A stretch of 55,161 nucleotides of DNA from a virus (IMGVR_UViG_3300025120_000065:1-55161); one strand, 5' to 3'. Counted from the first letter of the stretch, positions 2,459 to 55,161 are shown. The notes: generated from the letters alone by a model not told the origin. Made by a program: numbers and translations.

Positions 2459-3583
2459 TTGCCAAACCTACCACGTTATGTACAAGAACGGGTGTCATCT
2501 ACGGGTGACATCTCATACCGCTTTAACCCGCCACAGAACCTTGTTGATGAGGGTGTGGTCAAACGTGAGGAGTACGGCACAGACCTAAAACAGGTACGCA
2601 AGATTGTTCGTGATCACAACAAGGCGATTGACACATGGCGTGAAGAACAAGCACAGGTTGTACGAGTAAAGTCTAGCAGCAAGGTGACTGATCTTATTAA
2701 CTATTACTATATGTCTAATGATTTCAATGCATTGCGTCATACAACTAAGGTTGACTATAGGTACTTTCTGACTGTGCTGCACCAGACTATGGGGTGGCGT
2801 AAGTATGAGCACGTTACCTCTAAGGTTGCAAAGCAATCATACGAAGAATGGGTCAAACGTGGCATCAGTTTTGCTAATCATGCGGCAACATGTGCCAGTA
2901 GGGTGTACAACTATGCGATACAGATGGAGCACACAACATACAATCCTTGGGCAAACATCAAGCGTAAGTCTGCTGCACAGCGTAAGGTGGTGTGGACACA
3001 TGATGATGTTGTCAAGTTTCTTGACGTAGCATACAGCGACTTTGAGTATCGTAATGTTGGTTTGATTGTACAGATGGCATACGAGTGGTGCCAACGACTA
3101 GGTGACATGCGTATGTTGACGTGGGATAGCATTGACTTTCGTACACAGAAGCTGGCACTAGAACAGAGTAAGCGTAGGGCTGACGTAGAGCTACCAATAT
3201 CAGAGGGTCTATTACACATGTTGAATGAACAACGTAATGACTTTGGTTTTCAAGACTACGTTGCCCCACATCCTAGACCTACGGGTGGTACTTATAACCC
3301 TTATGCTATGGAGAGGCTATCCAAAGTGGGTAGAAGGGTAATGCGTCTAGCTAAACTACCCGAAGAGTTACGTCTTATGGACTTACGTAGGACTGGTGTG
3401 ACACAGATGGTAGATGCAGGTGTACCATTGCCCCAAGTTATGGCAGTGACAGGGCACAATCATGTGTCTTCTGTGAAACCATACATGAAACATACTTACA
3501 CTAGTGCAAATAGTGCCTTGACACAGAGAAACGTAAGTGTATCCTTGAGTGGAGCGAACAACATAGAAAGTGATACAGTATGA
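2459..3583 (+). CDS. int: Tyrosine recombinase/integrase
   Basis: QRLGD (catalytic R), DLRRT, TGH and PY catalytic motifs; TTG start abuts the previous stop. Confidence 0.9.
   Translation: MPNLPRYVQERVSSTGDISYRFNPPQNLVDEGVVKREEYGTDLKQVRKIVRDHNKAIDTWREEQAQVVRVKSSSKVTDLINYYYMSNDFNALRHTTKVDYRYFLTVLHQTMGWRKYEHVTSKVAKQSYEEWVKRGISFANHAATCASRVYNYAIQMEHTTYNPWANIKRKSAAQRKVVWTHDDVVKFLDVAYSDFEYRNVGLIVQMAYEWCQRLGDMRMLTWDSIDFRTQKLALEQSKRRADVELPISEGLLHMLNEQRNDFGFQDYVAPHPRPTGGTYNPYAMERLSKVGRRVMRLAKLPEELRLMDLRRTGVTQMVDAGVPLPQVMAVTGHNHVSSVKPYMKHTYTSANSALTQRNVSVSLSGANNIESDTV
3518..3545 (+). promoter_or_regulatory. Putative sigma70 promoter for primase-helicase
   Basis: TTGACA-N16-TATCCT inside the integrase 3' end. 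Confidence 0.5.
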
Positions 3584-51178: not shown

Positions 51179-51837
51179 CCCCTAATCGTACAGTTGTAAC
51201 ATTATGTGATATACTGAAACATTTTGTTACCTATAATGTATCACGATTTGTTTCACATGTGTAACCCTACGTGTATGTAAACCACCTTATGTGTATAGTG
51301 GTTAACAGTCACATTTTCCTGATCTGTGTATGAGTACATGTATATATATACGTATACCCCCCGCATGGCCCCTGCCCACCCGTGCATGACACACGTACAC
51401 ATCACACATCATGTGCTTGCATCGCTGGTGTACACATTATGCGACACACATCACACCAACACACGAGGAACTGTAACAAAAACAATGCTTTACGATACTG
51501 CGACAACTGTTATGTAATCAGTTGCCATACTAAAGTATGATGTGAACCACGGGATATAGAAAGGTGGTGAGTGTTGAAGAGTTGATGCATATTATCCTCT
51601 AACAGAGTTAGTGCCATCACAAATCAATCAAACCAATAGTGTCCAACATTGGACATGTCACAGTATAACTGTGGTAATTATGCAACACCAACTGTTTGCC
51701 CAACCCAAACTAGCCTCACGAGTTTAGCGCACGAACTTCGTAATTATTTATAATTACTGCAGTAGCATGGGAAACGACAGGCGCAGAGGATCACATGTGA
51801 AGAACCGACTTGACAGAACTTATACTATATTCTACTA

Positions 51838-51896
51838 GTTTATAAAGAGAACTATATCTCACTATTTGTGAGAGATATAGGTTCTCTCATATAAAC
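51838..51896. repeat. Long inverted repeat H1 before the first early gene
   Basis: AGAGAACTATATCTC/GAGATATAGGTTCTCT stem with one bulge; loop ACTATTTGTGA; TTGACA at 51810. Confidence 0.8.
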
Positions 51897-51921
51897 AGAA
51901 TATAGATAAAAGGATAAACCG

Positions 51922-52497
51922 ATGAAAAACTCAACAGCAACTTCAGGAACTTCAATCGACGCTTTAGTGAAAGAGGGCAAAGCCCTTGGATCAATTTGGC
52001 GTCAAGTGAACAGCCTCAAGCAAACCACCAAAGAGAGTGGTTTTGATACAAGGTTGGGTAAATTGCTACAGCAATTGAAAGCGTCATCAACTGTCGATAG
52101 TGGTCAAATACCAACACATGTTCTCCGAACACATGGTATTCAACAGATTGATCGTCGGCGTCGTTCAGAGGCTTTGTGGTTCGTTGAAAACGAAAAGGAG
52201 TGTCGCCAGTTTATCGTAGATAACAAGTTCAAAGGTTCATCACTGACAGCTTTACAAGCTGCAATGCGTAAGGCTGCTAAAGCAGATGACGCTGATAACA
52301 GCGAAGCTGAACCGTCCAATGTTGGACAATCTGAGGCTACTGAACAGCCAAAGGCTGATGCACCTAAGCAACGGTACTCCAAAACAGCCATTGTAAATGC
52401 TGTTATTGCTCAGGCTGAGCTCAACGAAGTTGACCTTGAAGAAATCATAAATGATTTAATTGAGGTACTTGCTGACCGTCAAACGGCTGCCGCATGA
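51922..52497 (+). CDS. First early protein, putative DNA-binding (DUF3102-like pattern)
   Basis: AAGGA RBS; RLGKLLQQLK...GQI...IDRRRRSEALWF; family call is tentative. Confidence 0.6.
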   Translation: MKNSTATSGTSIDALVKEGKALGSIWRQVNSLKQTTKESGFDTRLGKLLQQLKASSTVDSGQIPTHVLRTHGIQQIDRRRRSEALWFVENEKECRQFIVDNKFKGSSLTALQAAMRKAAKADDADNSEAEPSNVGQSEATEQPKADAPKQRYSKTAIVNAVIAQAELNEVDLEEIINDLIEVLADRQTAAA

Positions 52498-52694
52498 GGT
52501 ACAAAGTACCTAACACCAAAGCAAGCGTTGAGCAATCACAGCTTGACGCTGCTATGGCACAGTTCTGTGAACTCGCAGACGATATGAACCGTCCAACATT
52601 GGACACTTTGATTGCTAACACATTAACTCCTAAAGAGTTAAAGCAACACGAACCAACACTTATCTACGATAGTGGATGGAAGGATGTATCATGA
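52494..52694 (+). CDS. Hypothetical early protein
   Basis: ATGA overlap. Confidence 0.6.
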   Translation: MRYKVPNTKASVEQSQLDAAMAQFCELADDMNRPTLDTLIANTLTPKELKQHEPTLIYDSGWKDVS

Positions 52695-52858
52695 AGATTA
52701 TTCTCGCTATTGCTTGGTCTGTAATACTTGTATTACTTACCTATTTGACCATTGCCGTTGTATCACTCAATGGTCACTTGCATATACTCATTGGCATTGC
52801 GGTGCCTGTGGCAATGTTGGGCTTTATCACAATTTGTGAACGGCCTCTTGACAAGTAG
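52691..52858 (+). CDS. Two-TM early protein
   Basis: ATGA overlap; AAGGA RBS. Confidence 0.6.
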   Translation: MKIILAIAWSVILVLLTYLTIAVVSLNGHLHILIGIAVPVAMLGFITICERPLDK

Positions 52859-52924
52859 TATTACATAGTTATATAAACACTTGAAACTTTAGTGAAAGTG
52901 TTATATAACATATGTATAATACTA
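52856..52924 (+). promoter_or_regulatory. Inverted repeat H2 containing promoter TTGAAA-N17-TATAAC
   Basis: Nested arms around loop GAAACTTTAGTGA; -35 at 52881, -10 at 52904. Confidence 0.75.
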
Positions 52925-52932
52925 AAGATAAC

Positions 52933-53249
52933 TGAAACCGTCCAATGTTGGACACTTTAAACGGAGTTTATTATGGATTTAGATTTTTTCAGTGATTTGT
53001 ACAAAGATGTACATGGCATTAGACCTCGTGGTATTGTGCCAACACCAGAAATGGTGGACTACTTACAACGTGAGTTGGAATACCAACTTGCAGAGGAACG
53101 TGCCGATGAGGATGCAAGCATCAATGCTTGTATGGATCATGGTGCTCCCGACATAGACACTGCCATGCGGTGGCTTGAACAAGCTAACATCCACGCTGAG
53201 TGGGTATGATTGAAACCGTCCAATGTTGGACACTTTAAACGGAGTTTAT
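52933..53249 (+). repeat. 39-bp exact direct repeat (52933-52971, 53211-53249) flanking one gene
   Basis: TGAAACCGTCCAATGTTGGACACTTTAAACGGAGTTTAT twice. Confidence 0.95.
52973..53209 (+). CDS. Acidic early protein
   Basis: GGAG RBS; FSDLYKDVHGIRPR motif. Confidence 0.8.
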   Translation: MDLDFFSDLYKDVHGIRPRGIVPTPEMVDYLQRELEYQLAEERADEDASINACMDHGAPDIDTAMRWLEQANIHAEWV

Positions 53250-53253
53250 AAAA

Positions 53254-53448
53254 ATGTTGGAAATTACTCGTAGATCAATCGTTTCTGGTGTTGAAAACAC
53301 AATGAAACTTGACGTTACCATGCATGAGTACTTGCTATGGCGTGAGGGTATGCTCATCCAAGAGGCAATGCCTAACTTGTTAGCAGTGGAACGTGAGTTC
53401 CTCATTACAGGAATGAGTGAAGCGGAGCAAGCTGAACATTGTGTATAG
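53254..53448 (+). CDS. Early protein
   Basis: GGAG RBS; LIQEAMPNL...EREFLITG motif. Confidence 0.8.
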   Translation: MLEITRRSIVSGVENTMKLDVTMHEYLLWREGMLIQEAMPNLLAVEREFLITGMSEAEQAEHCV

Positions 53449-53504
53449 TATAAGTTATATATACTTGATACTTTAGTGAAAGTATATATAACTTATACAT
53501 ATAC
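53443..53504 (+). promoter_or_regulatory. Inverted repeat H3 (perfect 19-bp stem) containing promoter TTGATA-N16-TATAAC
   Basis: 53448-53466 pairs with 53480-53498; loop GATACTTTAGTGA. Confidence 0.8.
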
Positions 53505-53554
53505 TAACCACCACCGAAACCGTCCAATGTTGGACACTTTAAAAGGACGATACA

Positions 53555-54184
53555 ATGTATCAACGTGATGTAAATGAAATCAAAGCATTCGTAAAATGGC
53601 GTGGCCCAGATGCCTTGGTAAACACTGGCCTGTTTGTACTGCTTACGATACAAGCTGGCCTATCCACAGTACGTGGCAGCATGGTCAAGGTTGAACGTGA
53701 CTTCTACCAAGCTGATTGCTTGTGGGGTAAGAAAGCTGATGGCTACGAGTACCTAAACGAGAACCGTGATTTCTTATATGGCAAGCTGTATCACATTGCT
53801 GACACCAAAGGTTACGAAAGCGTAGAAGCGTGTGCCGATGTTATACAGTTGTTCATGGCTGTACCTAACCTTGGCATGGTCAAAGCTGCCTTCCTAGCTC
53901 AATGCTTAGGCTTCAATGTGGCATGTATTGACAGCCACAACATCAAGCGGTTGGGTATATCACCTAACCTTGTGAAGACGCCACCATCAGGCATGAAACC
54001 TGCGACAGTACGAAAGAAAGTTGAGCAGTATGTCGAACTGACCCAGCAAGAGGGCACTGAGTACTGGTGGAATACATGGTGCGAATATGTGGCAGGTAAT
54101 CGTGCCAACCGTGCTTTGGATACTGGTGACGTAGTGTCTAGGTATCATGTAGAATGTGTAACATATGGATTTGAACATGGCTAA
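53555..54184 (+). CDS. Helix-hairpin-helix DNA glycosylase-like protein
   Basis: VPNLGMVKAAF (HhH with Lys) followed by VACIDSHN (catalytic Asp region). Confidence 0.65.
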   Translation: MYQRDVNEIKAFVKWRGPDALVNTGLFVLLTIQAGLSTVRGSMVKVERDFYQADCLWGKKADGYEYLNENRDFLYGKLYHIADTKGYESVEACADVIQLFMAVPNLGMVKAAFLAQCLGFNVACIDSHNIKRLGISPNLVKTPPSGMKPATVRKKVEQYVELTQQEGTEYWWNTWCEYVAGNRANRALDTGDVVSRYHVECVTYGFEHG

Positions 54185-54347
54185 AAAAACTTCTGTAACA
54201 TACCGAAACCCTGTGGCAAAGGCAATGTTACAGGAGCGTAAATCACCACAAGTCGTGCCGCCTAAGAAAGGTGGCAAGGCTAAACACAACCGAAGAAAGG
54301 ACAATCTCAATGCGATACGAGATGCAAAACTTTATAAAGATGACTAA
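54177..54347 (+). CDS. Small basic early protein
   Basis: RNPVAKAM...KKG...NR pattern. Confidence 0.6.
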   Translation: MAKKTSVTYRNPVAKAMLQERKSPQVVPPKKGGKAKHNRRKDNLNAIRDAKLYKDD

Positions 54348-54453
54348 TAAAAAACCGTCCAATGTTGGACAGAAATCTACTCGTGATGAGTGGAAACGTG
54401 CTCGTAAAGTTGCACGTCAAACTAAACTAACCCTTCGTAAATCAGTAGCATAG
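54310..54453 (+). CDS. Small basic early protein (start uncertain)
   Basis: AAGG upstream; contains palindrome copy 7. Confidence 0.5.
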   Translation: MRYEMQNFIKMTNKKPSNVGQKSTRDEWKRARKVARQTKLTLRKSVA

Positions 54454-54464
54454 GAGCTAACACA

Positions 54465-54803
54465 ATGACCGACACTAATGTAAATGCACCCGTAGTAAAA
54501 ACTTCACACCCTGAGTTGTATGCAGAGCATACGTATCACATGAAGAAAGCCGTATGTTATACATATAACTACGTGGTAATTGACGAAGTTATTCGTGAGC
54601 TTTGGGGTGACATGACTATGGCAGAGATTGCCGAAGCGTTAAACGAGTACCCAAATCGTATTGCGTATCGTGTCCAAGTTTTAAAAGATCTTGGCGTAAT
54701 CAAAGGCAAGTATAACATGCACCGCTCAAACCTTATGCGGCAACGTAAAGAGGCGGCTACATGGCTGAAAGAAATTGACGCAGAGCTTGCAAAGGTAAGC
54801 TAA
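54465..54803 (+). CDS. Putative HTH DNA-binding early protein
   Basis: MTMAEIAEALNE...IAYRVQVLKDLGVI resembles a winged HTH. Confidence 0.6.
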   Translation: MTDTNVNAPVVKTSHPELYAEHTYHMKKAVCYTYNYVVIDEVIRELWGDMTMAEIAEALNEYPNRIAYRVQVLKDLGVIKGKYNMHRSNLMRQRKEAATWLKEIDAELAKVS

Positions 54804-55161
54804 TGCTCTACCTATTGTTCACACCTTTCGCTGGCTACTTTGCTATGCTAATTACTATTGTAATCATGCACAGTGTAGGCTATGACGTGAGAGGTGTGGA
54901 CACCTTCACTATCTGGTGTATATACATTCAGATATACGTATACTTATTTGTGATAAAAAAACTGAAAGGAATACAACATGACTAAACTAAAAACAAAACT
55001 AACTCGTGCGGAAGTACAGAAACTATGTGACTTGTACAACGCAATGGACACCATCCTAGATAATGCAGGTGAATCACTTGACGTGAGCCTCAGTAACTTA
55101 CATTGTATGCGTGACAAGGCGTGGGAACTGCGTGGCATGTTTGAGTTCAAACCTCAGAAGG
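54757..55161. repeat. Right copy of 405-bp end overlap
   Basis: Matches 1-405 with 3 substitutions. Confidence 0.97.

Follow-up and report, generated by a model that had tools for sequence, protein, structure and literature searches.

A conserved palindrome array in the early region of an HMO-2011-type phage and its candidate cognate protein

What reads a palindrome that a phage carries seven times where its early region begins? The locus in question lies in the viral genome IMGVR_UViG_3300025120_000065, a stretch of 55,161 nucleotides (nt) analysed here at its full length (the window), in which seven exact copies of GTCCAAnnTTGGAC fall within 51641–54370 and none elsewhere in 55 kb. The first early gene there encodes a protein of 191 amino acids (aa), one residue of which follows one base pair of the palindrome through over a hundred related phages. 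We consider it probable that the seven palindromes are dyad operators, read on double-stranded DNA by the dimeric product of this first early gene and limiting early transcription.

The window is a complete podophage genome, with a completeness rating of 100% for its record. Among named phages it is closest to the Roseobacter phages CRP-345, CRP-1 and CRP-9 and the Puniceispirillum phage HMO-2011, so it belongs to the HMO-2011-type group. Such phages are called dominant and widely distributed among marine viruses (PMC9038755). CRP-1 and CRP-345 infect Roseobacter RCA strains, and HMO-2011 infects a SAR116 strain. Genes before about 51.0 kb of the window are leftward; the rightward ones run from about 51.9 kb on and continue at the window start, including an integrase (2468–3580) and a primase. 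The palindrome array sits where this rightward early region begins.

The site is a dyad of 6+2+6 bases, 14 bp in all. The pattern GTCCAANNTTGGAC has exactly seven matches in the window (s1 to s7, Table 1), spaced 277–835 bp apart and all within about 3 kb of the early region, and its mean count in 100 dinucleotide-preserving shuffles is 0.00. This agrees with an earlier reading of the same DNA from its sequence alone (the sequence-only reading), which had counted seven exact cores and seen no other. When up to two mismatches are allowed, the same seven sites are found and none is added, with 1.82 ± 1.25 expected. With both strands counted, there are 20 copies of the half-site GTCCAA, of which 14 belong to the array and six lie elsewhere, for a whole-window expectation of 22.4 ± 5.2; the isolated half-site is rare outside the array.

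The surroundings of the copies are also as first described. AACC precedes six copies (all except s1) and ACTTT follows four (s3, s4, s5 and s6). Three copies lie inside open reading frames (ORFs) and are read in two different frames, as PSNVGQ in s2 and s7 and as RPTLDT in s3. Another three (s4, s5 and s6) stand 19–22 nt ahead of a start codon, with GGAG or AGGA between, and the remaining one (s1) is non-coding.

The array is conserved in the group. The 209-aa early protein, used as a query, collected 80 related contigs, and among 82 loci in all the array is present in 65 and absent in 17. CRP-345 has six copies and CRP-1 five, with none for a reversed control pattern; they are placed upstream of the first gene, within it, before the next larger gene and within the small basic ORF, and about 100 uncultured contigs also carry the array at the same places. 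HMO-2011 has five variant sites, AGTCCG-N4-CGGACT, around its gp74 gene and before the following start codons. By tblastn, the first early protein is found in none of the 17 motif-less relatives. The integrase is found in every motif-bearing locus with enough flank, at 65–83% identity; it is missing from four motif-less loci that have 5 kb of flank, and one locus (L056) has an integrase without the array.

Where the copies fall inside ORFs, their wobble bases are fixed and the peptide changes with the site (SNVG to SDVG); therefore selection acts on the nucleic acid. Distant subfamilies retain the s2 copy, in the codons of a protein linker, and the peptide there becomes SNVG, SDVG, PNVG or PDVG as the site type changes. 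The ORF-internal copies keep the 14-mer and their flanks differ.

The copies of one genome also change together. In many lineages every copy has switched, for example to GTCCGAnnTCGGAC. Three flank classes can be told apart, each uniform within a genome, and within each class GTCCAA..TTGGAC (A-type) has become GTCCGA..TCGGAC (G-type) in every copy of some genomes. The window and the 82 loci together hold 251 A-type sites, 46 G-type sites, 16 hybrids GTCCGA..TTGGAC, two opposite hybrids and ten others. Uniform copies within genomes and recurrent switches between genomes, taken together, demand that something reads the sequence.

Two kinds of copies stand apart from this pattern. One has a GG centre and lies in the integrase gene of some relatives (L004 10269, L025 4885, L029 9486, L034 9499, CRP-345 7079 and CRP-1 6868), the window being without it. 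It stays A-type even in the G-type genome L004; we leave it out of the system because it is unchanged when the other copies switch, and it is probably a coding coincidence. The other, at position 4792 of L061 and L062, has a G-type core with class-2 flanks and stands before a gene in an otherwise A-type class-1 genome; it looks like a cassette imported from another lineage.

Which protein follows the switch was asked of four early protein families, aligned for the 191-aa protein (44 sequences, 352 columns), the 112-aa protein (61, 132), a 60-aa ORF (50, 66) and the 209-aa protein (62, 260), by looking for columns in which A-type and G-type genomes have no residue in common. Only one of the 810 columns is so, residue 109 of the first early protein. 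It is Thr in 30/30 A-type genomes and Ser in 6/6 G-type and 8/8 mixed genomes of this initial set, and the block around it is otherwise invariant (S107, L108, A110, L111 and Q112). Among 67 sequences of the family, it is the position at which a conserved helix varies, with T in 27, S in 18, G in 6 and other residues in the rest. The codon of Thr109 is at 52246–52248 and that of residue 113 at 52258–52260.

This match was reached repeatedly. The protein tree requires at least four changes of the G-type label, with the mixed group as one further clade, and the rule as a whole needs at least 4–5 independent switches there, to which the two later pairs given below are added. Residue 109 and site type differ together even between near-identical phages, L063 against L059 and L060, and L040 against L038.

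The other early products do not follow the site. The sequence-only reading had named a second candidate, the 112-aa product, but none of its 132 columns (61 sequences) is disjoint between the site types. No column of the 60-aa ORF 54165–54347 or of the 209-aa protein is disjoint either, and the 47-aa ORF was rejected as its basic part is the same in A-type and G-type sister genomes.

The rule also held in 29 further genomes collected after its discovery. The later collection comprised 33 further loci of distant members (one locus from a viral-contig scan with the single protein P0022, none with P0060 and 32 with the sub-alignment A3). Nine later-collected Thr genomes have A:T in 37/37 sites, including arrays with the outer bases CCCCAA and TCCCAA, and ten later-collected Ser genomes have G:C in 47/48 sites. 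Two new pairs of close relatives differ in the same manner, L103 and L104 from L106 in the CCCC context, and L105 from L107–L109.

Altogether, Thr109 is found in 45 genomes with A:T at half-site position 5 in 215/225 sites. Ser109 with Lys113 occurs in 16 genomes with G:C in 78/80 sites, and wherever the sites of a genome are fully G-type (16 genomes), Ser109 is paired with this Lys. Lys109 goes with G:C in 42/43 sites of nine genomes and Gln109 with T:A in 3/4 sites of a single genome. HMO-2011 gp74 is a homologue of the first early protein (E 7.3e-46) and has Lys at 109. The ten odd sites of the Thr genomes are six C/T at s1 of one class, two imported cassettes and two unrelated look-alikes; the outer bases in these genomes are GTCC in 34, CCCC in two and TCCC in six, and in three the array went undetected by the filter.

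Ser109 with Arg113 is limited to eight genomes of one clade (L011, L017, L018, L021, L022, L024, L027 and L028), which have A-type and half-switched sites (16 G/T, 24 A/T and 1 A/C). This clade may be an intermediate of relaxed specificity caught in mid-switch.

Thr with A:T, Ser or Lys with G:C and Gln with T:A are the type of pairing expected for contacts in the DNA major groove. The co-variation of the palindrome with the first early protein, suggested earlier as a way to recognise a cognate pair, is borne out at residue 109, and these sequence comparisons support the site and the protein as a specific pair.

Table 1. Coordinates of the array and of the associated features in the window
Feature	Coordinates	Strand	Remarks
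Site s1 (GTCCAACATTGGAC)	51641–51654	.	Non-coding, about 280 nt upstream of the first early gene; same place in relatives
First early gene (191 aa), its product proposed to be the cognate protein that binds the sites specifically	51922–52497	+	Based on co-variation and models
Codons of the proposed recognition helix, residues 107–125 (SLTALQAAMRK...)	52240–52296	+	Helix predicted at 108–125
Site s2	52314–52327	.	In the first early gene, codons of the disordered linker (PSNVGQ)
Site s3	52591–52604	.	In the 66-aa ORF 52494–52694, another reading frame (RPTLDT)
Promoter-like P2	52892–52920	+	GTGAAA-17-TATAAT, 10/12, 19 nt to the s4 core; consensus match only
Site s4	52940–52953	.	19 nt past the promoter-like −10; 19 nt before ATG 52973
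Site s5	53218–53231	.	Cistron junction, best promoter-like match 7/12; 22 nt before ATG 53254
Promoter-like P3	53476–53505	+	GTGAAA-18-TATACT, 9/12, upstream of s6; in a repeat of the P2 region
Site s6	53522–53535	.	16 nt past the promoter-like −10; 19 nt before ATG 53555
Small, very basic ORF, 47 aa	54310–54453	+	Overlaps the end of ORF 54165–54347 in another frame
Site s7	54357–54370	.	In the small basic ORF 54310–54453 (PSNVGQ); a copy in this ORF in the relatives listed
Borderline winged helix, 112 aa	54465–54803	+	HTH_24, E 3.1e-4, 20.7 bits for a cut-off of 21.9

What kind of protein is this? Two AlphaFold2 models, with a mean predicted local distance difference test (pLDDT) score of 76.8 from 18 sequences and 88.7 from 67, agree on three parts, a helical N-terminal domain (about 12–125), a disordered acidic linker (about 126–153) and a helical C-terminal domain (154–190). 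The N-terminal helices are predicted at 12–26, 41–55, 65–71, 78–89, 91–101 and 108–125, the linker is of low confidence and two helices make up the C-terminal part. Site s2 falls in the linker codons, where the protein is least constrained. An arginine-rich block (D77, R79–R81, E83, A84, W86 and F87), with a run of four arginines at 78–81, is invariant.

The protein is predicted to be a homodimer, as suits the sequence-only reading's choice of it as the cognate of a palindrome. The homodimer scores 0.45, versus 0.00 for the best of three controls; the runs share at least 88% of contacts, and the pLDDT of the partner is at least 71. In calibration this mark was reached by 20 of 30 proteins solved as pairs of one chain and by one of 23 solved as single chains, counts that apply only roughly here because the prediction used an alignment made for this analysis. 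The predicted interface takes up residues 15–52, 70–76 and 151–183, and leaves the helix 107–125 and Arg78–81 free.

The family is small, without a name and found in the HMO-2011-type phages compared. Its profile finds only 135 proteins among 1.84 billion representative ones, mostly of about 200 aa. The 191-aa protein, among eight early proteins scanned, has no match in Pfam and PHROGs, and two profiles find nothing below E 0.069 in a sequence search of PDB. BFVD gives one match (S4S2E1, E 1.2e-5), which has no name. The weak leads of the ESM Atlas are DUF6192 (0.90), a closterovirus coat protein (0.90), RegA (0.89) and DUF3102 (0.89). The likeness to DUF3102 that the sequence-only reading had seen was not borne out by its model PF11300, which finds nothing in the window at E <= 10 and is not among the 25 families listed for 67 members of the family; the language-model lead is a weak one (0.89, 123/256 features).

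In a structural comparison with 48,161 chains by VIA-align, the first row for both models is 1r71_A, the KorB DNA-binding domain on its operator (Z 5.3, root-mean-square deviation 3.3 over 87 residues; Z 5.0, 3.3 over 86). Spo0J (1vz0_A) follows with Z 3.9 at rank 16 of the first model's rows, and all of these are within 1 Z of unrelated rows. The likeness to KorB is a lead only, with Z too low for kinship.

How would such a pair work? The first early protein would be made first and then bind the array. Each subunit would read one 6-bp half-site on double-stranded DNA through the helix 107–125, with residue 109, helped by 113, reading base pair 5 and with the two central bases left unread. It would bind past the two promoter-like elements (s4 and s6), 16–19 nt after the −10 hexamers and so shortly past the transcript start, and also before a ribosome-binding site (RBS) at s5, in its own gene (s2), in two small ORFs (s3 and s7) and, at s1, upstream of its own gene. 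Transcription across the early region, its own gene included, would be blocked or limited at initiation or during elongation, as by a self-limiting repressor. The role may be an early shut-off in lytic growth, that of the missing lysogeny repressor of these integrase-bearing phages, or both.

The two promoter-like elements lie in repeat copies (52860–52925 and 53448–53510) that precede s4 and s6. Their spacer holds a dyad, ACTTT-4 nt-AAAGT, whose ACTTT is the same five bases that follow four of the palindromes. The right arm of the palindrome was also tried as a −35 element and rejected, since the −10 would then fall on the start codon. Four public metatranscriptome contig sets cover parts of the early region, with little or no cover of 51186–51900; these contigs show no starts, ends or strand, and they break at repeats as assembly breaks do.

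Several observations weigh against operators of this kind. A good promoter-like element stands before only two of the seven sites and the other five have none within 75 nt upstream; five of the seven sites are inside ORFs or at a junction without such an element. Promoter-like sites are not enriched in the region either, with 14 found for 12.5 expected. Site s1 stands upstream of the first gene's candidate −35 hexamer by about 155 nt, which is not the classical place of an operator. The feature common to most relatives is a place 19–27 nt before a start codon, not the nearness to a promoter, and it would also suit a role at the RNA level. The variants with a change in a single arm are lopsided on the sense strand, with 16 G.U versus two A.C, and in one ORF a non-synonymous change is tolerated where the synonymous change of the other arm is rare, both as would fit an RNA hairpin. 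As to the protein, no Pfam model matches it, and the 25 families listed for 67 members of its family include no DNA-binding family; Foldseek against PDB gives neither model a match at E <= 0.001, and the KorB rows are barely above, within 1 Z of, unrelated ones, so the fold is without a clear known DNA-binding relative. Finally, the gene was not found in any prophage when 185,579 species, each represented by one genome, were scanned; the single weak match (42% identity over 52 residues) is in a Polyangiaceae metagenome-assembled genome.

Some of these points would suit RNA, and it has to be asked whether the first early protein binds hairpins of the early mRNA, for translational repression, for a polymerase modification like that of lambda N/boxB or at a processing mark. 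The place of the sites just upstream of the Shine-Dalgarno sequence is kept in all subfamilies with differing site sequences, all genes concerned are on the sense strand, and the step from A-U to G-C via G.U is the classical compensatory path. The arginine-rich invariant block and the weak language-model lead to the T4 RegA family could be read in the same sense. Yet the hairpin is weak, −4.9 kcal/mol with a 5-bp stem, and its loop is not conserved. The centre in Thr and Ser arrays is TG, CA or CG only, in either orientation, and the asymmetric 4-base centre of HMO-2011 is inverted at one site before an RBS (ACAG and CTGT both occur); therefore the centre is not read strand-specifically, and a reader of an RNA loop should not accept such changes. 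The symmetric dimer predicted for the protein matches a DNA dyad, not a hairpin stem, which has no dyad. Moreover, s1 is upstream of the first gene's candidate promoter, no terminator-like sites besides the palindromes themselves were found for an antiterminator to override, and Rfam 15 gives three matches only, to microRNA families far below their gathering scores (E 0.18–3.4). The 16 G.U-type variants all belong to a single clade, and the same single-arm pattern could arise if mutation were biased on the non-template strand. We infer that the sites are read as double-stranded DNA, well ahead of RNA, and hold the RNA hairpins unlikely. A phage RNA polymerase using hairpin promoters, as in N4-like phages, was considered apart and rejected; none is annotated in CRP-345, and the wobble variants are on the wrong strand for a template-strand hairpin.

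If DNA is bound, the purpose may differ, and the sequence-only reading had already set a parS-like loading array and a protection of incoming DNA beside an operator array. An array for ParB/KorB-like loading, silencing or partition, or for coating, protecting or drawing in the leading end of the genome, agrees with multi-copy dyads 277–835 bp apart over the early region that enters first, with the domain order and KorB on its operator as the top structural row, and with a specificity diversified repeatedly, as is also seen in partition systems. However, the KorB model PF08535 finds nothing in the window at E <= 10, and no ParB/KorB family is among the 25 listed for 67 members. ParB proteins have an N-terminal nucleotide-binding domain of mixed alpha/beta fold, and none is evident in the all-helical models, whose Z scores fall among those of unrelated helical rows. 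In the record of CRP-345 there is an annotated integrase but neither a partition protein nor an RNA polymerase, and nothing in the sequence bears on DNA entry. An operator array is favoured, a choice that the sequence alone does not settle, and the loading or protecting array seems to us improbable. Could the repeats be passive instead, cassettes for recombination or structural hairpins that duplication has spread and gene conversion keeps alike, without a protein dedicated to reading them? T4-type phages have promoter-stem-loop cassettes that resemble this. The small ORFs between the sites differ among close relatives (present in 21, 9, 12 and 44 of the 65 motif-bearing loci for the 66-aa, 55-aa, 78-aa and 64-aa ORFs, respectively), the edges of the BLAST match between the window and L004 fall at sites with promoter-site cassettes swapped, and L061 and L062 have the class-2 cassette described above. 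Because of these differing small genes and similarity edges, the repeats seem to serve also as joints for cassette shuffling, which is better seen as their side effect. Gene conversion cannot explain one residue that tracks the sites through at least 4–5 switches and 29 further genomes, nor do the ORF copies, which keep the 14-mer despite differing flanks, look passive, so this explanation is very improbable. No more weight can be given to the box of a host regulator borrowed by the phage. The GTCC....GGAC core is common to phages of different hosts (Roseobacter RCA and SAR116), but the site type differs between near-identical phages and follows the phage protein, the outer bases differ between phage subfamilies (GTCC, CCCC and TCCC), and we know of no host box of this sequence.

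Operators read on DNA by the first early protein are the preferred reading. This protein may be an unrecognised lysogeny repressor, because the array phages carry an integrase and CRP-3, itself an HMO-2011-type phage, is reported to integrate (PMC9038755). In its full form, the proposal is that of a lysogeny/immunity repressor of the HMO-2011 type that would silence the early region by way of roadblock operators ahead of each early cistron and within its own gene, with a code of one or two residues (109 with 113) for base pair 5, whose flips make coexisting and mutually non-immune lineages; we put it forward tentatively, as possible and rather doubtful. The failure of the one-genome-per-species scan to find a prophage copy speaks against a lysogeny repressor. 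The repeated changes of specificity would fit a selection to escape the repressor of a resident relative. The text of PMC9038755, its supplements not included, makes no mention of a palindrome, inverted repeat, promoter, repressor or RNA polymerase, and a literature search on HMO-2011-type phages, likewise without supplements, found no paper on the regulation of the group.

Other features of the region stand beside the array. The 209-aa protein (53555–54184) is encoded by its best conserved gene, with 49–100% identity in 80/80 loci including those without the array, and matches nothing in Pfam or PHROGs. The 47-aa ORF is found by tblastn in 63 of the 65 motif-bearing loci and in none of the 17 motif-less ones, a signal that is partly the site itself; its first ten N-terminal residues are almost invariant, and the site lies inside it in the relatives listed.

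Four bases past s1 lies a second dyad (51659–51673) with arms of 6–7 bp and a centre of three bases. Its symmetry is kept at the same place in L003–L063 with a differing sequence, in at least six versions, and judged by eye it tracks neither the 112-aa protein nor the clades of the 191-aa one. Another dimeric protein may bind there, or the dyad may form a hairpin. Further on, between the candidate promoter and the RBS of the first early gene, 51825–51906 can form an imperfect hairpin of about 80 nt (−31 kcal/mol), kept in class 1 and most class 2 relatives with compensatory changes in its outer stem; it may be a structured leader controlling the regulator's own expression.

Left of the early region, the non-coding 51320–51470 is rich in alternating TG/CA and TA runs and is possibly a replication origin or a packaging site. 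The window ends, 1–405 and 54757–55161, repeat the same 405 bases with three mismatches (positions 118, 201 and 278). They are either a terminal repeat or an overlap left when a circular or permuted genome was assembled out of a mixed population.

The pair described here would be the first candidate regulatory circuit for the HMO-2011-type group, made of a nameless protein family, its sites and a residue reading one base. Its repeated natural switches provide ready data on joint changes of specificity in a protein and all of its sites, and CRP-1 and CRP-345 are cultured phages with the array. If the immunity proposal is true, the code flips, each followed by all 5–7 operators of a genome, create mutually non-immune lineages in the ocean.

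How does it compare with known systems? With lambda N/boxB it shares an arginine run; the conserved loop and the downstream terminators of that system are not found here, where the loop is variable and in both orientations and the protein is a folded, predicted dimer. In the lambdoid repressor/Cro systems the first early product acts on its own early region, the site is shortly downstream of an early promoter and the specificity differs between related phages. Here, too, the first early protein would act on its own early region, two sites lie shortly downstream of promoter-like elements and specificity differs among relatives, whereas the lambdoid operators are clustered at two promoters and those here number 5–7, mostly at cistron junctions and inside ORFs; the lambdoid proteins have no homology to the first early protein.

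KorB of plasmid RK2, a member of the ParB family, resembles it in the multi-copy palindromic operator and in the order of a helical DNA-binding domain, a linker and a C-terminal dimerisation domain, which here is predicted. It differs in that no N-terminal domain of the ParB type is evident here, no ParA partner is annotated and the Pfam model is unmatched.

A further parallel is that of the immunity repressor and stoperators of Cluster A mycobacteriophages (L5 gp71 type). There, repressor and sites diverge together. As here, one phage protein has many sites in transcription units beyond the early promoter; the Cluster A system is temperate, and the window and its relatives carry an integrase. 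Pfam gives no sequence relation of its repressor to the first early protein, and lysogeny or immunity is only proposed for the latter. The Cluster A repressors are described as terminating elongation, too, at numerous binding sites across the genome, and as reading an asymmetric sequence as a two-domain monomer (PMC9283540), in contrast with the 14-bp dyads, the predicted dimer and the 3 kb of early region found here. The evolution of immune specificities has been studied in Cluster A phages (PMC6550527). Set beside these systems, the pair described here would be an operator array with its own regulator, of a protein family that has no name.

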